Source: Gemmatimonadales bacterium (GTDB lineage: Bacteria > Gemmatimonadota > Gemmatimonadetes > Gemmatimonadales > GWC2-71-9). From it: a stretch of DNA of 64,000 nucleotides. The position numbers and the translations under genes were made by a program. The DNA lies in assembly GCA_036501385.1 (NCBI GenBank), contig DASYAK010000074.1, forward strand, positions 27,646-91,645. The letters run 5' to 3'. This document shows positions 5,339 through 42,695 of this stretch, in pieces (within the stretch, counting starts at the first letter, position 1; each line of letters begins with the position of its first letter). Under the pieces are notes generated by a model. That model saw nothing but the letters and a program-made list of their open reading frames with translations, ran no database searches and was not told the origin of the DNA.

Positions 5339-6528
5339 TGGCGCGGTTTCCTCCGCGCTCCCGCGCTCCCGGTCCCACCCGGTGCGGGATCGCCGGCTTT
5401 TGCCGTGGCGTTGGCACTATCAGCGGTTGGCGCAGTTGCAGGATTCCGGATGCTGACTCGCGAACTGTCGGTGAGGCGCAACTGGCCGTCAGTTACGATC
5501 GTTTCGCCGGCCGTGACGCCGCTCTGCAACATGGTGAGCGAATCGGAGCTCCGCGCCACGGTCACCTTGACGGGGTGCGCGCGCCGGTTCGAATCGACGA
5601 TCCAGACCACACTTCCGTTCTGGCTGTTCTGGACCGCGGCAGTCGGCACCACGAGGGCGTTCCGGGCCACATCGAGCTGCAGCGAGACGGCGTCGAGGCC
5701 GCCTGGCCAGAGCGCGCCATCGGCGTTGGGGAAGATCGCCTTGAGCAACACGGTGCCGGTGAGTGAGTCGACGTTGTTGTCGAGGAAGGTGAGCTTGCCG
5801 TATTCGACGTGGGCCGAATCGCCCACCGGCCGTGCTTCAACGGCGAGCCCGCTGTCGGCGCGGCGGCGCACGGCGTCGAATAGCGCGGCTGGCACGGGGA
5901 AGCGGACCATGATCGGCGAGATCTGGTTGATCACGACCAGCGTCTGGCCGGCGCCGCCACGCACCTGGTTCCCTTCCTTCACCAGCACCGAGCCGGCGCG
6001 CCCGCTGATCGGCGCGCGAATCGTGGCGTACTGCACGTTGAGCCGCGCCTGGGCGATCATGGCGCTGTCGGTGCGGAGCGTCCCCACAAGCGCGTCGGCC
6101 ATCGCCCGCGTCTGGTCGAGTTGCTGCTGGGTGACGTAGTCCTTGGCGGCGAGCGCCTGGTAGCGGGCGACGTCGTGCTGCGCACTGATCCAGCTGGCGT
6201 AGTCGCGCGCCTGTGCGCCCTGCGCCTGCTCCAGCGCGGCCTCGAACGACCGCGGGTCGATCTCGAACAGGATCTGTCCCTCGTGGACTTCGTCACCCTC
6301 CTTGAAGAGCACGTGCTGCAGCAGGCCGCTCACCTGTGCCTGCACCTCGGCCGTCTGGATCGGCTCAATCGTGCCGGTCGCCGCGATCATCCGCGGCATG
6401 TCGACGCGCCGCACCTGGGTGACCGCGACCGGAACTGGCGGCGGCGGCGTCGCAGCCTTGCTGTGGCAGGCGGCGAGAACGAGCGGAGGGAGCGCAAACA
6501 AGCAGCAAAGGCGTGACACGCGAATCAT
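5335..6528 (-). CDS. RND efflux periplasmic adaptor (membrane fusion protein), lipoprotein
   Basis: Lipobox [21 protein letters not shown]. HlyD/AcrA-like coiled-coil and barrel regions (GTIEPIQTAEVQAQVSG, YATIRAPISGRAG). The internal ATG at 6528 overlaps the OMF stop (ATGA). ORF track 5335..7008 is over-extended. Confidence 0.9.
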   Translation of the reverse strand: MIRVSRLCCLFALPPLVLAACHSKAATPPPPVPVAVTQVRRVDMPRMIAATGTIEPIQTAEVQAQVSGLLQHVLFKEGDEVHEGQILFEIDPRSFEAALEQAQGAQARDYASWISAQHDVARYQALAAKDYVTQQQLDQTRAMADALVGTLRTDSAMIAQARLNVQYATIRAPISGRAGSVLVKEGNQVRGGAGQTLVVINQISPIMVRFPVPAALFDAVRRRADSGLAVEARPVGDSAHVEYGKLTFLDNNVDSLTGTVLLKAIFPNADGALWPGGLDAVSLQLDVARNALVVPTAAVQNSQNGSVVWIVDSNRRAHPVKVTVARSSDSLTMLQSGVTAGETIVTDGQLRLTDSSRVSIRNPATAPTADSANATAKAGDPAPGGTGSAGARRKPRQ

Positions 6529-8206: not shown

Positions 8207-9301
8207 ATGCATCGCACTGCCCTCGACGCCCGCCACCGCGCTCTCGGAGCCCGGATGATCTCCTTCGCGGGATGGGAAATGCCGGTCCAGTACAGCGGAC
8301 TGGTCGAGGAACACCACGCGGTTCGCCGGGCCGCCGGGCTCTTTGATCTGTCGCATATGGGAGAGCTTTACCTCACTGGAACCGGCGCGGGTGCCGCACT
8401 CGATTACGCTCTCGTCACCGCACCGGGAAAGCTTGCCGCAGGGCGGGCCCATTACTCGATGATCTGCGCCGCCGACGGCAGTGTGATCGACGACCTGATC
8501 GTCTATCGCCTGGGCGAGATGCGCTACCTCGTGGTCGCCAACGCGTCGAATGCAGCGACGGTGGCCGCGGCGCTCGAGGAGCGGCTGGCCGGATTCGATG
8601 CGCGGCTTGACGACGCGTCGATGCGCACGTCGCTGGTCGCGATCCAGGGGCCGCGTGCCGCCGAAATCCTCCAGCCCCTCACGAGCTTCGATCTCGCCAC
8701 GCTCAAGTACTACGCTGGCGTCGAGGTGACCGCCTGCGGCGTGCGCGCGTTGCTCGCCCGCACCGGATACACCGGAGAAGACGGCTTCGAGCTCTTCGTG
8801 GAATGGAACGATGGCGTTGTGGTATGGGATGCGCTCCTCGAGGCAGGAACTCCTGCCGGACTCATTCCCGTGGGACTCGGCGCGCGCGATACCCTGCGCC
8901 TCGAAGCCGGGATGCCACTCTACGGGCAGGAACTTGGGCGCGATACTACGCCATTCGAAGCCAACCTCGGCCGGGTGGTGAAGTTCGACAAGGCAGGCGA
9001 CTTCGTGGGACGTGCCGCACTCGACCGCGCCAAGGACGCCCCGCGCAAGACGCTGGTCGGGCTGCGGATCACTGGTCGAGGGATCGCCCGGACCGGCTAC
9101 CCCGTCTATCTTCCCGCCGCGCCGGAACCGTGCGGCATGATTACAAGCGGTACGGCATCTCCCACGCTCGGCGTCGCCATCGCGATGGGATATGTCCCGG
9201 TCGAGCAGGGCCGCGCCGGCAACACCTTCGAGGTGGGCATCCGGAACCAGCGTGCCGCGGCCGAGATCGTGCCGCTGCCGTTCTATCGACGTTCGACCTG
9301 A
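8207..9301 (+). CDS. gcvT: Glycine cleavage system T protein (aminomethyltransferase)
   Basis: [53 protein letters not shown] is the canonical GcvT N-terminus. ATG at 8207 preferred to the TTG at 8174. Confidence 0.95.
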
Positions 9302-9318
9302 GGCTTCTGGAGGCGACG

Positions 9319-9702
9319 GTGAATATCCCCGACAAGCTCAAGTATTCGGCTGAGCACGAATGGCTCGCCGTCGACGGCACCACCGGCACAGTGGGGATCA
9401 CCGCGTTCGCCGTCGAGCAGATCGGTGACATCGTCTTCGTCGAACTCCCCGCGGTGGGCTCCACGGTGGAAGCCACCAAGGCGTTCGGCGTGATCGAGTC
9501 GGTGAAGGCGGTGAGCGAACTTTTCGCCCCGGCGTCGGGGAGGGTGGTCGCAATCAACGAAGCCCTCGCCGATGCACCCGAGACGGTGGCCAGCGATTGC
9601 TACGGCGCCGGATGGCTGATCAGGATCGAGCTGAGCAATCCCAGCGATCTCAATGCGCTCAAGGATGCCGCAGGGTATCGCGCCATGATCGCGAGTCTCT
9701 AG
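9319..9702 (+). CDS. gcvH: Glycine cleavage system H protein (lipoyl carrier)
   Basis: GTG start at 9319 preceded by GGAGG. KYSAEHEWL and the lipoyl-lysine motif VIESVKAVSEL. In frame inside the over-long ORF 8803..9702. Confidence 0.95.
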   Translation: MNIPDKLKYSAEHEWLAVDGTTGTVGITAFAVEQIGDIVFVELPAVGSTVEATKAFGVIESVKAVSELFAPASGRVVAINEALADAPETVASDCYGAGWLIRIELSNPSDLNALKDAAGYRAMIASL

Positions 9703-35174: not shown

Positions 35175-36290
35175 ATGAGCGGTGTTCGAGTCCTCGTCGG
35201 TACGCACAAGGGTGCGTTCATCCTGACCTCCGACGGGAAGCGGAAGCGGTGGAACGTCAGCGGGCCGCACTTCGCGGGGTGGGACATCTATCACGTCAAG
35301 GGATCGCCGGTTGATCCCGACCGCCTCTACGCATCGCAGTGCAGCGGCTGGTTCGGCCAGATCATTCAGCGCTCCGATGACGGCGGCAAGAGCTGGAATC
35401 CAGTGGGAAACGCGTTCACCTACGACGGCGTTGCGGGCACCCATCAGTGGTACGACGGCACGCCGCATCCGTGGGAGTTCAAGCGCGTTTGGCATCTCGA
35501 GCCGTCACTCACCGACCCCGATACCGTCTACGCCGGCGTCGAAGATGCCGCGCTCTTCCGCTCCACCGACGGCGGCCAGAACTGGCACGAACTCTCCGGC
35601 CTGCGCCAGCACGGATCAGGGCCGCGCTGGCAGCCGGGCGCCGGCGGGATGGGACTGCACACCATCCTCCTCGATCCGGTGCATCACGGTCGGATCTACA
35701 TCGCCATCTCGGCGGCGGGCGTCTTCCGCAGTGACGATGCCGGAGTGACCTGGCAGCCGATGAACCAGGGACTCCGCTCGCAATACATTCCCGACCCCGC
35801 CGCCGACGTGGGCCACTGCGTGCACCGGATCGCGCTCCACCCGTCGCGCCCGGACGTCCTCTTCATGCAGAAGCACTGGGACGTGATGCGCAGCGACAAC
35901 GCCGCCGAAAGCTGGCAGGAAGTGAGCGGCAACCTCCCCACCGATTTCGGCTTCCCGATCGACGTGCACGCCCACGAGCCCGAGACGGTGTACGTGGTGC
36001 CGATCAAGAGCGACTCCGAACATTATCCGCCCGAGGGGAGGTTGCGGGTCTATCGCAGTCGCTCGGGTGGCAACGAATGGGAACCGCTCACGAAGGGCTT
36101 GCCGCAGGAAAACTGCTACGTCAATGTGCTGCGCGAAGCGATGGCGGTCGACACCCTCGACGACTGCGGCATCTACTTCGGCACCACTGGCGGCCAGGTC
36201 TACGCGTCGCCCGACGGTGGTGACAACTGGGAGCCGATCGTGCGCGATCTGCCTTCGGTGCTCTCGGTCGAGGTGCAGACGCTGACATGA
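35175..36290 (+). CDS. Cytoplasmic BNR/Asp-box repeat beta-propeller (sialidase-like fold, function unknown)
   Basis: Six Asp-box-like motifs ([53 protein letters not shown]). No signal peptide. Confidence 0.8.
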
Positions 36291-36583
36291 TGCGAGTGGA
36301 ATTGCCGGCGCATCTGCGCACCATCGCGCGAGTCGATGGACTGGTGGAGCTGGAGCCCACGGCACCCGTGACGCTCCGATCCACCCTCGACGCACTCGAG
36401 ATGCGGTATCCGGCCTTGCGCGGCACGATCCGCGATCACGTCACCTTCAGGCGCCGCCCGTTCCTCAGGTTCTTTGCCTGCGGCGAAGACCTCTCCCACG
36501 ATTCGCCCGACAAGGCGCTCCCCGATGCCGTGACTCGCGGCGATGAACCATTGCTCGTAGTGGGAGCGATTGCGGGGGGATAA
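36287..36583 (+). CDS. ThiS/MoaD-like ubiquitin-fold small protein ending in Gly-Gly
   Basis: 98 aa. The ATG overlaps the upstream TGA (ATGA at 36287..36290). The C-terminus [10 protein letters not shown] is followed directly by a stop. Size and pattern fit the beta-grasp sulfur-carrier family. Confidence 0.7.
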
Positions 36584-36640: not shown

Positions 36641-37060
36641 CTAGTTCGCGCAGAGCTCGTCAATCGATCCCTGTTGACCGCGAATCAGTTGTACGTCCAC
36701 CGATGATCCGGGCGCCACGTTCGTGATTCCAAGCAAATACGACACCTGCATCAACTGTCCGCTGATTCGACCGGTGAGTGCGATCGAGTAGGCTCCGGCG
36801 GGCAGGTTGCCCATGCCTTCGTTGGTCGCGACAAACTGGAAGATCCCATCGTCCTTGAGATCGATGGCGCCGCGCGTCACGAATGCCATGCAGGGAAGCC
36901 GTACCTGCATGCTGTCACCCCCGGCCGCAATCCGGAGATCAGTTCCTCCCCAGATTCCGTCAATCGCGGCGGATGCATCGGAACTCGACGAACATCCAGT
37001 CAACAGCGTGACAACGAGTGTGAGAGCGGTGCAGCAGAGCGGCAGTAATCGACGCATCAA
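36641..37060 (-). CDS. Hypothetical lipoprotein
   Basis: Lipobox MMRRLLPLCCTALTLVVTLLTGC followed by a Ser-rich linker. 139 aa. No family recognised. Confidence 0.6.
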   Translation of the reverse strand: MMRRLLPLCCTALTLVVTLLTGCSSSSDASAAIDGIWGGTDLRIAAGGDSMQVRLPCMAFVTRGAIDLKDDGIFQFVATNEGMGNLPAGAYSIALTGRISGQLMQVSYLLGITNVAPGSSVDVQLIRGQQGSIDELCAN

Positions 37061-37129
37061 CTAACTATACCGGCTGAATCATTTCTGGCAACGGCCTCGA
37101 TCGCCACGCCGCCTCCACCCGGCGCTCGT

Positions 37130-38371
37130 CTACGCCTGCCGTCTCCTGGCCACGGAGACGGCGATCAGCACCGCCAGCGCCGAGTAGATCGCCAGCAACG
37201 GAATCCACGAGAGGCGCAACGTGGCACCAGTCAGGATCTCGGCGCTGCGGAACTCCGCATCGTGCGTCGCGAGCCATTGCGACTTCGCCCACCGCTCGAC
37301 CCCTTCGCCCAGCGATTCGTCGAACGCCCGCTGGAATGCAATCTCGAACGGCTGATCCGATGTCCAGAATTGCCGGAACCGGTCCCGGCCGTACTGTCCG
37401 ATCAGCCCGGCGATGAACGTCGGGCTCGGCGTTCGCACCGTCGCGAACGTCGCCGAATCGCCGGTCCGCAGGTAAGCGGGCATCGTCATATCGGGGGGGA
37501 CGAGCCGGTCGACCCATTCGGCCGCCGCCGGATGGAGCACGGTTGTCGCGCACGAACTGGCGCGTCCGCCGAGGCACCGGACGCCGTCCGCGCCGTAGTC
37601 GTACGGCGGGCGAAGCAACTCTGCGAGATCGAGCGCGCCGATCCCGGACGCAATCTGGAAAAACGCGTTGTACGGGAAGTCCGTGACACTGGTATTCCGC
37701 ATCCGTTCGAAGGGGCCAAACTGGTCGCGGAAGTCCCGGGGCCGGGTGAGCCAATCATTCGATCGCGCTTCGAGATAGCGCGTCGCCGTCAGCCACTCCG
37801 CGATCGCGGTGCCTGGTTGACCAAACGCGGCGCGCAGCGCGCAAGGCGAAGTCGCTGTTTCGAGCGAAGACTCGTTCACCGACACCGTTGACTGTTTCGA
37901 ATAGGCATACCCGCCGACAATCGCGACACACCAGTTGCGTCCGCCGCGCTCCGCGAACAGAGCGCCGCGATACCGCCCCCACTCGAACTTCGACACCTGA
38001 TCCACGCCCTCGTTCTGCACCAGCACGACAACATTCAGCGCCGAATCGGTCGGGCCGATCGCGCGCCAGAGTGCATTGACCGTCGCCACCGTTTTCGGCG
38101 CGCTGATTCCCGCCGGGAATCCCTGGAATACCACCTGCGGAACCGGTCCTGTCGGCGTCGCGGCGTGGTCGAGATACGCCAGCGCCGAATCGCGCTGACT
38201 GAATTGCGACCAGACGGTCGCTGCGGTGTATTCATGCAGGGTGAGCGCGTTGAGCTGCGCACCGTGATCGACCAATTGGTCGACCGCTGACACTGAGCCG
38301 GACCGCTTCCACAACGGGAGGAGCACACCCGCGAGCGCCAGCGCCGCGAAACCGATCCTGCCGCCCCTCAT
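37130..38371 (-). CDS. Hypothetical bitopic membrane protein (N-terminal signal/anchor, large periplasmic domain, C-terminal TM)
   Basis: The start ATG at 38371 overlaps the upstream stop (ATGA); ATG 38377 is an alternative. N-terminus MRGGRIGFAALALAGVLLPLW. C-terminal helix WIPLLAIYSALAVLIAVSV. Last gene of the YtrA/ABC operon. Confidence 0.6.
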   Translation of the reverse strand: MRGGRIGFAALALAGVLLPLWKRSGSVSAVDQLVDHGAQLNALTLHEYTAATVWSQFSQRDSALAYLDHAATPTGPVPQVVFQGFPAGISAPKTVATVNALWRAIGPTDSALNVVVLVQNEGVDQVSKFEWGRYRGALFAERGGRNWCVAIVGGYAYSKQSTVSVNESSLETATSPCALRAAFGQPGTAIAEWLTATRYLEARSNDWLTRPRDFRDQFGPFERMRNTSVTDFPYNAFFQIASGIGALDLAELLRPPYDYGADGVRCLGGRASSCATTVLHPAAAEWVDRLVPPDMTMPAYLRTGDSATFATVRTPSPTFIAGLIGQYGRDRFRQFWTSDQPFEIAFQRAFDESLGEGVERWAKSQWLATHDAEFRSAEILTGATLRLSWIPLLAIYSALAVLIAVSVARRRQA

Positions 38372-39336
38372 CCCCATCGTGACGCTCCCAACGCGCCGGC
38401 CAGCGCCAGCGCCGTCCATCCGAGCGCCAATACCACGATACTCGGCGTCAGTGGCGACGCCGTGGGCCGCATCGCAAGCAACTGGGCGCGCCAGCGCACC
38501 AGCAACGAATCAGCCGGTATCCCGGCCGCCGCGGCGAGCGCGGGTTCCAGCCCGTCGGCACCGGTGTCGCGGAATCGGCTCCACGCACCGGGACCGCCGA
38601 TGTCCAGGGCCGTCAGCAACAGATCAGCGCGTAGAAGTGGTGGAAATGGCCCACCCGCCGACGAGTCAGAGCCACGACGAACGTCGAGCGCCAGTGCGCA
38701 CCCCTGCACGTCACCGCGCACGCAGGCACGCTGCGCCGGACCCGTTCCGGTTACCAGCAGGTACATCGCGAGATTGCGGCGTTCGTGATCCGACGTCGTG
38801 ATCGGCGGCGCAAACGCGAGCCAATCGTGTAGTCGCGGCGTCAGTTGTTCAAACATCATCGTGTTGAATCCGTCGATCAGCGTGCTGGCGAGAAACACCG
38901 GCGACGTCGTCCGCTGGACACGCACAGCGCGCCCCGTGTCCGGAAGCCCCGCAAGGACCACGGAGCCGACCTTGCGGTCTACGTCATATTGCCGGTCCTC
39001 GTCGGCACGTCGCTGCTCGGTCCGCACCACGATTCGAAAGCCGTCAGGTGATGGCACCGCGCCGCTGAACCAGCGCCCCGTCGTACTGTCGAATACGTGC
39101 ACCGCGGCCAGTGCAGCATCCCGCTGCGACAGCGACGCCGCGACGGCAGTATTGCCGTGTCGTGCGATTTCCACGGTCCCGGAATCGCCCTGAACCAGCG
39201 AGTCGTGCAGCACTTGCACCTGAGCCGCAATCCGGACCAGCGAGTCGCGCCACGCATTGGCCTCCTGTGCCCGGGCGGCGAGTGGCAGCGCGAGGAGCAG
39301 CGCGGCAACCGGCCCCCATTGCCACGCGCTACGCAT
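38368..39336 (-). CDS. Hypothetical exported protein with C-terminal TM anchor
   Basis: Signal MRSAWQWGPVAALLLALPLAARAQ. C-terminal helix IVVLALGWTALALAGALG. 8-nt overlap with the upstream permease gene. Confidence 0.6.
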   Translation of the reverse strand: MRSAWQWGPVAALLLALPLAARAQEANAWRDSLVRIAAQVQVLHDSLVQGDSGTVEIARHGNTAVAASLSQRDAALAAVHVFDSTTGRWFSGAVPSPDGFRIVVRTEQRRADEDRQYDVDRKVGSVVLAGLPDTGRAVRVQRTTSPVFLASTLIDGFNTMMFEQLTPRLHDWLAFAPPITTSDHERRNLAMYLLVTGTGPAQRACVRGDVQGCALALDVRRGSDSSAGGPFPPLLRADLLLTALDIGGPGAWSRFRDTGADGLEPALAAAAGIPADSLLVRWRAQLLAMRPTASPLTPSIVVLALGWTALALAGALGASRWG

Positions 39337-39979
39337 CGATCAGCATCCAGCGTCCGCCGAGCGGTGCAAACGGCCCGGGGAAGACGGCGAGCGCTCGCAC
39401 CGTGATCCACAGCAGATTGACCTTCGGTGCCAGGAGAATCACCGCGACGTGCACGGCGAGGAAGAGCCCCACGATCCGGATCGCGATCCCGATGCTTCGC
39501 GCCGACGCCGACGCCAGGGCGAAGGAGATGCCGAACAGCAGCAGAAGCGTGATCGCGAACTTCGCGGCGATCGCGTCGGGATAGCTGCGGACTCCCGGTG
39601 GCAGATCGAGCCCGATTGTCGCCACGTGCGCGCCGAGCCAGAGGGCCACCGCGACTGGCGCCAGCAGTATCAGCCCCGCCGCGTACCGCAGCAGCACATA
39701 CCGCCACCTCGGCAGCGGGAGGAGCATCGCGTAGACGTGCTGGCCGCGACGATCGGACATCCACGTCGCCGCGGCGAGTATCAACGCTGCCACCGCTGCG
39801 AGGACCGGATAGAAGAGACCCCAGAGCTCGAGCTCGGTCAGAAAGAGTGGCAGGTTCGCGGTGGCTCCGCCCCAGCCCAGCCGGATCGAGATGATCGGCA
39901 ACGCGAATGCGGTCAGCGCGAGCGCGGCAACAAGCGTGCGGGTCGCGATCCACTGGATCGAGATGATCGCCTTCAGCAT
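39329..39979 (-). CDS. Polytopic membrane protein, probable ABC-2-type permease partner
   Basis: 216 aa, about 6 hydrophobic helices. The start overlaps the ATPase stop by 7 nt. Its position after an ABC ATPase in a YtrA-type operon supports the call. Confidence 0.65.
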   Translation of the reverse strand: MLKAIISIQWIATRTLVAALALTAFALPIISIRLGWGGATANLPLFLTELELWGLFYPVLAAVAALILAAATWMSDRRGQHVYAMLLPLPRWRYVLLRYAAGLILLAPVAVALWLGAHVATIGLDLPPGVRSYPDAIAAKFAITLLLLFGISFALASASARSIGIAIRIVGLFLAVHVAVILLAPKVNLLWITVRALAVFPGPFAPLGGRWMLIDA

Positions 39980-40890
39980 GATGGTACTCCTTCCGCGCGC
40001 TCGGTCCGGAAGGCGCGCAACAGTTCGACGAATCCATCCTCGAGATCGAGATCGGCCACGTCACGCAGCGTGACGCCCCCGCGATCGAACCACCCGGTCA
40101 TCTCCGGTTCCCATCCGCGCACCACCCACGTCTCCGTCGAACCGGCGTCACGAGTGCGAGCGAGGATGGTGAACGGCGTAGCCGCAACGTCGAGCGCAAT
40201 GTCGGTCGACACCCTGATCCGCTTGTTGCCATTGCGGAACTCGCTCATCGGGAGTTCCACCACCAGGCGCCCGCGATCCATCACGCCGATCCAGTCACAG
40301 AATCGCTCCAGCTCGTGCACCAGATGGCTCGACACCAGGACCGTGGCGCCGTGCGTCGACACGTATTCGAGGAGTGCCGCGAGCACATCGCGCCGCACCA
40401 CGGGATCGAGTCCGTCCATCGGCTCATCGAGGACGAGGAGGTCGGGTCGTTGGCAGAGCGCGAGCAGCAGCATCAGCTTCGCGGTTTCGCCCTTCGAGAG
40501 GCCGGCGACCTTCTGCGCCGCGCGGAGCCGAAAATCCTCGAGCAGCTGCGCGGCCCATTGCGGATCCCATCGCGGATAGAACGCCCGGTGAAAGTCGAGC
40601 GATTCGGCGACGGTGAGATACCGGTGCAGATGCGGCCGATCGGGAATCACGCCGGTGCACGCCAGCGCCGCCGGGAGCTGATCCGGAACGCGATGACCGA
40701 GGAGGGTGATCGATCCCGCATCCGGGCGAAGCAGCCCCAGCAGCAGGCGGATCGTCGTCGTCTTGCCGCATCCATTCGGTCCGAGGAATCCGTAGAGCGC
40801 CCCGGCGGGAACAGCGATCGACAGGTCCTCGATCCCGAAATCCTGCGACGTACGGTACGACAGCCCATGGGTTTCGATGGCAAGACTCAC
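39973..40890 (-). CDS. ABC transporter ATP-binding protein
   Basis: Walker A GPNGCGKTT, signature LSKGETAKL, Walker B LLVLDEP, H-loop SSHLV. The GTG at 40890 overlaps the GntR stop (GTGA). The upstream part of ORF 39973..41289 is an out-of-frame shadow of the GntR gene. Confidence 0.9.
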   Translation of the reverse strand: MSLAIETHGLSYRTSQDFGIEDLSIAVPAGALYGFLGPNGCGKTTTIRLLLGLLRPDAGSITLLGHRVPDQLPAALACTGVIPDRPHLHRYLTVAESLDFHRAFYPRWDPQWAAQLLEDFRLRAAQKVAGLSKGETAKLMLLLALCQRPDLLVLDEPMDGLDPVVRRDVLAALLEYVSTHGATVLVSSHLVHELERFCDWIGVMDRGRLVVELPMSEFRNGNKRIRVSTDIALDVAATPFTILARTRDAGSTETWVVRGWEPEMTGWFDRGGVTLRDVADLDLEDGFVELLRAFRTERAEGVPSC

Positions 40891-41267
40891 CGGCTTCCTC
40901 CCTCGAGTTCGTGTCGAATCGCTTCGCGCAATTCCTGTTGCGACAGTCCCAGCCGCGCCGCGTCGGCCAGCATCTGGCGCGCCAGCCGCCGCGCCTGCGC
41001 AATCCGTTCCCGCGACCGGCTCTCCACCGCCATGCTTCGGACGAAGGTGCCGGCCCCCTGCCGCAACTCGACGAACCCCTCGTCTTCGAGCACCCGGTAC
41101 GCCTGGACGACCGTGGCGGGATTGATCCGCAGCCGCCCCGCCAGTTCCCGCACCGACGGGAGGATCTCGCCGGACCGGAGTTCGCCGGTCGCCACCGCGG
41201 CCTTGAGCCGCACGGCGATCTGCTCGTAGAGCGGGACGGCGCTTTTCGGGTCGAGATCGGCGAGCAT
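40887..41267 (-). CDS. GntR-family transcriptional regulator, short YtrA subfamily
   Basis: 126 aa. Winged-HTH PLYEQIAVRLKAAVATGELRSGEILPSVRELAGRLRINPATVVQAYRVLEDEGFVELRQGAGTFV with only a short C-terminal helical tail. Confidence 0.9.
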   Translation of the reverse strand: MLADLDPKSAVPLYEQIAVRLKAAVATGELRSGEILPSVRELAGRLRINPATVVQAYRVLEDEGFVELRQGAGTFVRSMAVESRSRERIAQARRLARQMLADAARLGLSQQELREAIRHELEGGSR

Positions 41268-41278
41268 GCATCTCCGGG

Positions 41279-41311
41279 TGTATCGTCAACTGTATTGCTG
41301 TACCGATACAG
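41279..41311. promoter_or_regulatory. Candidate YtrA/GntR operator: nested inverted repeats and three TGTAYYG direct repeats
   Basis: TGTATCG (41279), TGTATTG (41291), TGTACCG (41299). GTATCG(41280..41285)-N18-CGATAC(41304..41309) and CTGTAT(41290..41295)-N10-ATACAG(41306..41311). Lies 12-44 nt upstream of the GntR start at 41267. Confidence 0.35.
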
Positions 41312-41399
41312 TAGATGTTTTCCCGGGCCGCGTCAAGTGGGCGCCGTCCGGACGGCTCGCCGGTTGCCTCCCGCGCCGGGCCCCGCGTGATTGCTGTCG

Positions 41400-42695
41400 A
41401 TGACCGCCACCGAAACCCATCGCGCCGTCGAGGCGGTCTGGCGGATCGAGTCGTCCCGCCTCATCGCCGGTCTGACCCGGCTGGTCCGCGACGTCGGTCT
41501 CGCCGAGGATCTGGCCCAGGACGCGCTCGTTGCGGCCCTCGAGCGGTGGCCGGTCTCGGGGATTCCCGACAACCCAGGCGCGTGGCTCATGGCCACGGCG
41601 AAACACCGAGCCATCGATCATCACCGCCGTTCGACGCGCCTCGACGCCAAGCACGCCGCACTCGGGATCGAACTCGACGCCGAGCGCGACGCGGAGGTCG
41701 CCAAGCTCGACGCCGCCCTCGACGATCCGGTCGGCGACGATCTCCTCGGCCTGATGTTCATGACCTGTCATCCGGTCCTGCCGAGTGAAGGTCAGGTTGC
41801 CCTCACCCTCCGGCTTCCCGGCGGTCTGTCGACTCCCGAAATCGCGCGCGCGTTTCTGGTGCCGGAGGCCACAGTGGCGCAGCGCATGGTCCGTGCGAAG
41901 CGCACCCTGGCGCAGGCGAAGATCCAGTTCGAAGTGCCGCGCGGCGCCGAACTCGCCGCCCGCATGCCCGCAGTGCTTGGCGTGATCTATCTCATCTTCA
42001 ACGAGGGATACTCCGCCACCGCTGGCAACGCATGGACTCGTCCCACGCTTTGCGACGAAGCACTTCGCCTCGGCCGGATCCTTGCCGAGCTCGCGCCGGA
42101 AGAGGGCGAGGTGCACGGGCTGGTAGCGTTGATGGAATTGCATGCGTCGCGTTTGCGGGCGCGCTCGGGCCCGGCCGGCGAACCGATTCTGCTTCTCGAT
42201 CAGGATCGGGCGCGATGGGATCAGATGCTGATTCACCGCGGTCTCGCGGCACTCGCGCGCGCGGCCAGTCTCGGCGAACTCGGGCCATATGGCCTCCAGG
42301 CCGCGATTGCGGCATGCCACGCCCGGGCCCGGGTTGCATCGGAGACCGATTGGATCCGGATCGCCGCACTCTACAGCGCGCTGGTTCTCCGCGCGCCATC
42401 TCCAGTCGTCGAATTGAACCACGCCGTCGCGATCGGGATGGCGTTCGGTGCCGAACCGGCGCTGGTGCTGGTCGACGCCCTCCGCGATGAGGGGCTCCTG
42501 GCCCAGTACTACCTTCTCCCCAGCGTGCGCGGTGACCTTCTCGAAAAAATCGGACGCTTCGATGAGGCCGCGGCGGAGTTCGAGGCGGGTGGATCACTCA
42601 CGCACAACGAACGCGAGCGGACGATCCTCCTCGATCGTGCCCAGCGTGCGCGGCGCCACGCCGCTGGCGTGCCGCCGGCATCGTCGGCATCTTAG
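41400..42695 (+). CDS. ECF sigma factor with long C-terminal extension (ECF42-like)
   Basis: AVWRIESSRLIAGLTRLVRDVGLAEDLAQDALVAALERWP, NPGAWLMATAKHRAID (region 2), LSTPEIARAFLVPEATVAQRMVRAKRTL (region 4), then a helical extension of roughly 230 aa. The ATG at 41400 or the TTG at 41391 could be the start. Confidence 0.9.
   Translation: MTATETHRAVEAVWRIESSRLIAGLTRLVRDVGLAEDLAQDALVAALERWPVSGIPDNPGAWLMATAKHRAIDHHRRSTRLDAKHAALGIELDAERDAEVAKLDAALDDPVGDDLLGLMFMTCHPVLPSEGQVALTLRLPGGLSTPEIARAFLVPEATVAQRMVRAKRTLAQAKIQFEVPRGAELAARMPAVLGVIYLIFNEGYSATAGNAWTRPTLCDEALRLGRILAELAPEEGEVHGLVALMELHASRLRARSGPAGEPILLLDQDRARWDQMLIHRGLAALARAASLGELGPYGLQAAIAACHARARVASETDWIRIAALYSALVLRAPSPVVELNHAVAIGMAFGAEPALVLVDALRDEGLLAQYYLLPSVRGDLLEKIGRFDEAAAEFEAGGSLTHNERERTILLDRAQRARRHAAGVPPASSAS

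Follow-up and report, generated by a model that had tools for sequence, protein, structure and literature searches.

The synteny of YtrA-type repressors of the GntR family with genes of ATP-binding cassette (ABC) transporters spans phyla (bioRxiv 10.64898/2026.02.18.706565). Such modules are widespread, how they perceive signals and what they do is debated even in Bacillus, and nearly all work on them has been carried out in Gram-positive bacteria. Here we describe a five-gene operon of this kind in a stretch of 64,000 nucleotides (nt) from the metagenome-assembled genome of a Gemmatimonadales bacterium (contig DASYAK010000074.1, positions 27,646 to 91,645; hereafter the window, whose numbering is used for all coordinates), in which the genes of the repressor, an ABC ATPase and a permease are followed by those of two predicted periplasmic proteins that we call P4 and P5. 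Our reading of this locus, to which we give a probability of roughly 55%, is that it encodes an autoregulated YtrA/ABC-2 exporter whose periplasmic part would be made of P4 and P5, acting as two paralogous, disulfide-bonded and non-catalytic accessory subunits.

Of the described systems, MbrRAB of Streptococcus salivarius is one in which the YtrA-like repressor (MbrR) is sequestered by its cognate ABC ATPase (MbrA) (bioRxiv 10.64898/2026.02.18.706565). Both there and here a YtrA-type repressor comes first in an autoregulated operon (autoregulation being, in our case, predicted) together with a cognate ATPase and a small permease, a palindromic operator lies at the promoter, and the transporter itself is the likely sensor. 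However, MbrRAB is a three-gene unit of single-membrane Bacillota, whereas the Gemmatimonadota module belongs to a phylum with two membranes and adds two linked periplasmic proteins of no described family. The Bacillus ytr operon responds to inhibitors of the lipid II cycle, its true role being still debated (PMC12772383), and the ytrGABCDEF operon of B. subtilis resembles our locus in that a YtrA repressor gene is followed by ABC transporter genes (PMC12772383, PMC8060467). It differs in having two ATPases (YtrB and YtrE), the membrane proteins YtrC/D and an FtsX-like YtrF, where we find one ATPase and one permease. YtrF is a separate component with a large external domain that supplies the extracytoplasmic part of the transporter, but at the sequence level it is unrelated to P4 and P5, which have no Pfam match.

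In Staphylococcus aureus, repression by PmtR is relieved by direct binding of the system's own exported phenol-soluble modulin (PSM) peptides (PMC5080381). PmtR and PmtA provide the best NCBIfam models for our GntR protein and ATPase, and pmtR-pmtABCD and the present locus would both be autorepressed exporter operons; the Pmt system, in contrast, is built of two ATPase/permease pairs and lacks accessory proteins in the periplasm, and the window proteins score far below the equivalog cut-offs of its models. A further parallel is offered by GldAFG (through GldG) and NosDFY(L), in which an ABC-2 ATPase and a permease with six transmembrane (TM) segments share an operon with an extra envelope protein, and GldG-type proteins carry N- and C-terminal membrane helices around a periplasmic domain. 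This two-anchor topology is also that of P5, and the GldA model matches our ATPase. Nevertheless, P4 and P5 have no sequence match to ABC_transp_aux/GldG, NosD or any other Pfam family, there is no GntR regulator in those systems, and the partners here are two and paralogous.

The regulator-ATPase-permease core of YtrA/ABC-2 type is thus already known, while the paralogous P4 and P5, the domain they have in common and the occurrence of the module in Gemmatimonadota are not described in the family libraries and literature that we searched; no paper was found that links Gemmatimonas, GntR and ABC transporters. A preliminary description, made from the sequence of this one locus, had presented it as a YtrA-type GntR/ABC operon carrying two uncharacterised, C-terminally anchored periplasmic proteins that fall outside the described systems, and our analysis bears out this core claim. 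The cassette places the repressor-exporter core in Gemmatimonadota, a phylum that is abundant in soil and poorly studied. With a defined operon, operator and protein pair, it offers an entry to how an ABC-2 pump devoid of an ectodomain gains one, and to whether transporter-mediated capture of a repressor operates beyond Gram-positive bacteria.

Gene order and overlapping junctions

A six-frame listing of open reading frames (ORFs) and a direct reading of the sequence place five consecutive genes on the minus strand, at 41267..37130, in the order YtrA-type GntR repressor, ABC ATPase, permease, P4 and P5. Each of the four junctions is an overlap, in agreement with the preliminary description except for a refinement at the start of P5. 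The repressor (126 amino acids, aa; 40887..41267) and the ATPase (305 aa, with a GTG start; 39973..40890) overlap by the four letters GTGA at 40887..40890, the ATPase and the permease (216 aa; 39329..39979) by 7 nt at 39973..39979, and the permease and P4 (322 aa; 38368..39336) by 8 nt (ATGCGTAG) at 39329..39336. The P5 gene (413-415 aa; 37130..38377) closes the series.

We retrieved contigs for homologues of P4 and P5, checked their gene order by tblastn, and obtained 13 distinct cassettes: that of the window, L001, L002 (= L003/L008), L004 (= L005), L006, L007, L010, L011 and L014-L018. All 13 have the order GntR, ATPase, permease (about 216 aa), P4-like protein (306-377 aa) and P5-like protein (369-419 aa), and the sequences that flank them are mutually unrelated, except in the syntenic pair formed by the window and L001. 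The association of P4 and P5 with the GntR/ABC/permease trio, which the preliminary description had offered as the point on which its proposal could fail, is therefore kept in 13 of 13 cassettes, including relatives at only about 20-30% identity. A P5 profile run with HMMER against 1.84 billion representatives (clusters at 50% identity) recovered 1,042 clusters at E <= 1e-3, of which 508 remain at the stricter E <= 1e-10; almost all have lengths of 370-420 aa. Five distant members lying on long contigs (P0140, P0128, P0180, P0120 and P0160, at about 20-25% identity) are all found within a cassette. Two short contigs show P5 overlapped by the gene before it, which in the one that was tested is P4-like (E = 3.5e-11). 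The search for P4 gave 23 close homologues. Every named source is given as Gemmatimonadales, Gemmatimonadaceae, Gemmatimonas or Gemmatimonadota. Judged from these comparisons, the five-gene module is a real, deeply conserved and self-contained operon that is typical of Gemmatimonadota.

A second copy of the cassette was not found within the window. Two members of the collection show peculiarities of their own. In L006, the permease (5357..6005) and P5 (6966..8053) genes are each broken into several frames, as seen from tblastn pieces on the ENA contig; either this copy of the cassette is decaying or the sequencing introduced frameshifts. In L007, an extra gene of 369 aa (8210..9319) overlaps the end of P5; it occurs in this cassette only, has no Pfam match, and was rejected as a relative of P4 and P5 (hhalign probability < 1%).

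The junctions around P4 are conserved in a way that involves the coding sequences themselves. The 8-nt overlap between permease and P4 is kept in nine of the ten cassettes examined, L017 being the exception with a 40-nt gap, and the ATG of P4 is embedded in the codons of the conserved C-terminal tail of the permease, LID(A/V)*. Between P4 and P5, an overlap of 4-16 nt is present in all cassettes examined. In the window this is the ATGA at 38368..38371 if P5 starts at the ATG at 38371, which yields a protein of 413 aa and is the start chosen for P0001, the JGI gene call. The alternative is an ATG in the same frame at 38377; it follows GGGAGCG at a distance of 7 nt and would yield a protein of 415 aa (MGMRGG...) and an overlap of 10 nt. 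P5 probably starts at this second position, because it is the equivalent of 38377 that serves as start in most other cassettes, within the conserved P4 tail codons GGAGCxTCxCGATGG (...GASRW), and because the orthologous proteins begin with MGVTxRR or MAVRLR. The codons of the conserved P4 tail, (L)GASRW, are at the same time the Shine-Dalgarno sequence and the ATG of P5, a dual coding that spans 38375..38392 on the minus strand of the window and has equivalents in L002, L004, L007, L014, L017 and L018. The conservation of the P4 tail may reflect translation initiation as much as protein function.

No terminator-like sites were found within the operon, which would form a single transcription unit. 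As for translation, the comparative evidence for coupling of permease, P4 and P5 is strong. The preliminary description had gone further and deduced obligate co-translation from the four overlaps: the recurrence of the permease-P4 and P4-P5 overlaps across cassettes speaks in favor of coupling, but overlaps as such only permit it, and obligate coupling is not proven by them.

These junctions also bear on whether P4 and P5 are part of the transporter at all, as they could be envelope proteins, for instance protective or remodelling factors induced by stress, whose only tie to it is their common control by the YtrA-type repressor. Several features speak against this: the start signals of P4 and P5 lie within the upstream coding sequences, their overlaps recur to the extent just described, none of the 13 cassettes has them separated from the ABC genes, and the permease that precedes them has no periplasmic domain of its own. 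We consider co-regulation alone to be an unlikely explanation on these grounds, despite the much faster divergence of P4 and P5 compared to GntR protein, ATPase and permease, their lack of a match to any known ABC accessory family, and the precedent of a Sulfolobus YtrA regulator that is described as repressing loci that encode membrane proteins (PMC6746942).

The paired envelope proteins P4 and P5

P4 has a signal peptide with a predicted cleavage site at ARA|QE, where the junction motif AQxAxxWRDS is conserved, followed by a predicted alpha/beta domain, a helical domain that holds its invariant cysteine pair, and a single C-terminal TM helix (residues 295-319) that ends in SRWG. P5 begins with an N-terminal hydrophobic anchor and a conserved LPP/LPL turn, continues with a periplasmic domain and a C-terminal module, and ends in a single TM helix (384-410) followed by RRRQA. 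Both tails fit the positive-inside rule. Across 26 P4 sequences the invariant residues are W172, C205, G208, C213, R236, R254, L267, W282, R283 and W307. The invariant cysteines are two in P4 (C205-x7-C213) and four in P5 (C148, C177, C266 and C274), and the motif C-x2-G-x4-C (CxxGxxxxC) is common to both proteins. This pattern fits disulfide-bonded periplasmic domains and, taken together, the signal peptide, the TM helices and the invariant cysteine pairs point to P4 and P5 being periplasmic and anchored in the membrane.

The three-part organization of these C-termini, with a conserved Gly or Pro, a hydrophobic helix and a cluster of Arg, is also that of the sorting signals cleaved by exosortases, rhombosortases or sortases. 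If the helix and its basic tail were such a signal, P4 and P5 would be released or attached elsewhere in the envelope, and the ABC system would serve their export or maturation. Weak matches to Synerg-CTERM in two of 56 P5-family members (best E = 0.0013), and to GlyGly-CTERM in one, go in this direction. However, the match of the window P5, the sole one for which a position is given, covers the N-terminal hydrophobic segment and not the C-terminus, and no sorting enzyme is encoded in or beside any of the 13 cassettes. Furthermore, the tail of P4 (SRW) has one basic residue only, and the embedded start of P5 accounts for its conservation. We regard a sorting signal as highly improbable.

The preliminary description had noticed a weak likeness between P4 and P5 in the region before the last helix, and this likeness proves to be statistically real. 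When the profile of the P5 family (56 sequences) was aligned to that of the P4 family (23 sequences) with hhalign, residues 258-409 of P5 matched residues 197-320 of P4 with a probability of 93% (E = 3.2e-7), and the match was maintained when the TM helix was left out (92%, E = 7.7e-7). In the joint alignment the common domain comprises about 100 residues. The N-terminal domains align over one helix only, which ends in an invariant Trp (P = 0.002), and the predicted order of their secondary-structure elements is similar. We conclude from these profile comparisons that paralogy extends at least over the juxtamembrane half of P4 and P5, where they have a homologous C-terminal module made of the CxxGxxxxC motif, a helical region and the TM anchor.

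Beyond each other, P4 and P5 resemble little that is catalogued. Their own sequences have no match in Pfam, NCBIfam, PADLOC or the PDB, sequence and profile searches of the PDB with P4, P5 and merged C-module profiles came back empty, and PF09822 (ABC_transp_aux, GldG-like) matches neither of them nor any of 79 relatives. The AlphaFold2 (AF2) model of P4 is confident (predicted local distance difference test, pLDDT, of 84.6), and a fold search of the PDB gave no significant neighbor for it; the model of P5, built from an alignment of six sequences, has a mean pLDDT of 52.4, and its best neighbors are not significant either. As an unconfirmed lead, residues 30-85 of the P4 homologues P0015, P0018, P0020 and P0021 give sub-threshold matches to Secretin_N (PF03958; best E = 1.5e-4, 22 bits against a cut-off of 28). 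These matches come from four or five related P4 homologues of one clade and correspond to a helix-hairpin-helix at the start of the mature protein.

The likeness between P4 and P5 had initially been compared to the C-terminal region of peptidase-MA-like domains, a resemblance that finds no support. The HExxH motif is absent from all 56 P5-type and all 26 P4-type sequences. The initial remark that neither window protein has an intact HExxH agrees with their sequences, and the nearest approximation, HEYTA in P5, is not conserved among orthologues. No His, Glu, Asp or Ser is conserved in the P4 and P5 families (there is no His or Glu column at >= 70%), the invariant residues being of the Cys, Gly, Trp, Phe and Arg types, and no peptidase family was matched in Pfam at E <= 10 by 79 family members or in NCBIfam at E <= 1 by the 56 P5-family members. 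With neither an HExxH motif nor a conserved metal ligand nor a profile match, membership of P4 and P5 in peptidase-MA was rejected. More generally, since they lack HExxH and conserved His, Glu, Asp and Ser, P4 and P5 are very unlikely to be enzymes.

A subtler version of the idea is that P4 and P5 are degenerate zincins, that is, pseudo-proteases of metzincin or peptidase-MA-like type that would have a binding or regulatory role in the periplasm. The predicted order of elements in the N-terminal domain (one or more strands, a helix, three or four strands and a long helix) would fit a zincin alpha/beta fold, the top Foldseek matches of P5 include YbeY (1oz9, 7y7o), MMP-11 (1hv5) and a putative zinc peptidase (4l7a), and, in our reading, the invariant C177 and G184 of P5 are spaced as the His and Gly of HExxHxxG. 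Yet these fold matches have E values of 0.24-2.3 and probabilities of at most 0.14 on the low-confidence P5 model, while the confident model of P4 matches no peptidase of the PDB. To this must be added the same absence of HExxH from the 82 sequences, of conserved metal-ligand residues and of peptidase families among Pfam (E <= 10) and NCBIfam profiles that argued against active enzymes. A degenerate zincin is, in our opinion, an improbable origin for these proteins.

The repressor-exporter core and a proposed circuit

The 126-aa regulator contains a winged helix-turn-helix domain at residues 13-76 (PF00392, E = 1.7e-17, 63 bits against a cut-off of 27), followed by about 50 residues that form a short helical tail and in which Pfam shows no second domain. 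The sole NCBIfam models that it matches end to end are those of the YtrA-type regulators PmtR (residues 5-118 of 125; E = 7e-19) and Rv1152, with scores below the equivalog cut-offs in both cases (for PmtR, 68 against 200 bits). By its winged helix-turn-helix, its short C-terminus in place of an effector domain (FCD, UTRA or aminotransferase), its position upstream of ABC genes and the palindrome in its own promoter, it has the sequence hallmarks of the YtrA subfamily.

The ATPase matches PF00005 with E = 6.6e-25, and its nearest NCBIfam models are PmtA (E = 6.5e-42, 144 bits against an equivalog cut-off of 350), DrrA and NodI, with GldA at E = 2e-31. Its motifs are intact (Walker A GPNGCGKT at residue 37, signature LSKGE at 131, Walker B LLVLDE at 151 and H-loop SSH at 187), which gives it, as far as motifs can tell, all that is expected of the nucleotide-binding subunit of an ABC-2 type exporter, including the catalytic Glu. 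PADLOC models of defence systems detected generic ATPase similarity only. The membrane subunit appears from its hydropathy to have about six hydrophobic segments and no periplasmic domain of its own. It would be a divergent ABC-2-type permease: matches to ABC2_membrane_5/2/4 are found in all eight sequences searched (the window and seven orthologues), always below threshold (16-23 bits against 25-27). ATPase and permease are each present once in the cassette, and no FtsX or MacB_PCD matches were found in Pfam.

Upstream of the GntR gene, the preliminary description had remarked on repeats, and these are real: they correspond to an operator-like inverted repeat, ACTGTAT-N10-ATACAGT (TGTATnnnTACAnnnATACA), at 41289..41312. 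On the minus strand, a -35-like hexamer TTGACG (41331..41336) is separated by a 17-nt spacer from a -10-like hexamer TACTGT (41308..41313) that overlaps the left arm of the repeat; GGAG and then the GntR ATG, at 41267, lie downstream of it. Related cassettes keep an aligned TTGAC ahead of the GntR gene, positions 1, 2 and 6 of the -10 hexamer (T, A and T) are conserved across the aligned loci, and the whole block of promoter and inverted repeat aligns in register across six loci. Distant cassettes retain a repeat as well, for example ACTGTATC-N8-GATACAGT in L014. In the 64 kb of the window the TGTATnnnTACAnnnATACA pattern is present once, where chance would predict 0.02 sites, and among the loci it is seen only upstream of the GntR gene. 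We interpret the block as a sigma-70-like promoter in which a conserved inverted repeat extends over the -10 element and the predicted start region. The GntR repressor probably binds at this repeat, and the layout is the one expected of an autorepressed YtrA operon.

A circuit can be proposed from these elements. The GntR repressor would bind the inverted repeat and switch off its own operon. P4 and P5 would be produced in a fixed proportion with the permease, a stoichiometry to which the recurring overlaps and embedded start signals point, and would dock on the permease dimer through their common C-terminal module, supplying the periplasmic ectodomain that the permease is without. This ectodomain would serve to recognize the substrate or to pass it on, the substrate itself being probably a precursor of the envelope or a compound that is amphipathic or acts on the envelope. 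Because YtrA proteins have no ligand-binding domain, we propose that induction passes through the transporter, as in MbrRAB: the ATPase of the working transporter would capture the YtrA-like repressor, and repression would thereby be relieved.

Several considerations weigh against an autoregulated exporter with P4 and P5 as its periplasmic subunits. With 29-57% identity to the window proteins among the cassettes, P4 and P5 diverge much faster than GntR protein and ATPase (56-94%), the permease being intermediate (33-84%), and such fast divergence also fits co-regulated envelope proteins that stand outside the transporter. Both the single transcript and the contact of P4 and P5 with the permease are features that we infer. 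Finally, sequestration of the repressor is known from Bacillota only, where it involves a two-gene transporter without accessory proteins (bioRxiv 10.64898/2026.02.18.706565).

A bolder proposal, which we put forward tentatively and with more doubt than confidence, is that P4 and P5 represent two new paralogous families with a new juxtamembrane domain of about 100 residues (a 'CxxGxxxxC-helical' domain), and that they act in the periplasm as the sensor or hand-off part for an ABC-2 machine present throughout Gemmatimonadota, whose activity reaches the YtrA repressor via the ATPase. If true, it would be a first in two respects, as an extruder-repressor circuit in a two-membrane phylum and as one with dedicated periplasmic subunits, and the machine could serve a lineage-specific envelope process instead of antibiotic defence.

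Neighboring genes

The lipoprotein gene that follows P5 on the same strand (36641..37060, with the lipobox LLTGC) had been mentioned as trailing the operon, but it lies outside the module: it recurs only in the closely syntenic L001, and the 69-nt gap that precedes it holds a sigma-70-like site, TTGCCA-16-TATAGT (37064..37091, minus strand; 10 of 12 matches), so that the gene probably has a promoter of its own. We rejected it as a sixth member for these reasons. On the other side, about 120 nt from the GntR gene and divergent from it, lies the gene of a sigma factor of the extracytoplasmic function (ECF) type (434 aa, with a C-terminal DUF6596; 41391..42695, plus strand). It was likewise rejected as a partner, since it adjoins the cassette in the window and L001 only, and a functional link is improbable. 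Rfam and tRNA scans of the window were both empty.

Further downstream, on the plus strand, a BNR/Sortilin-type beta-propeller protein of 371 aa (35175..36290) shares an ATGA overlap with an ORF of 98 aa (36287..36583). The product of the latter ends in ...AIAGG, and although it has no Pfam match, its C-terminal Gly-Gly recalls small proteins of the ThiS/MoaD type. The pair is kept in L001 (8746..10154), and BNR or beta-propeller genes also adjoin the cassette in L006 and L017.

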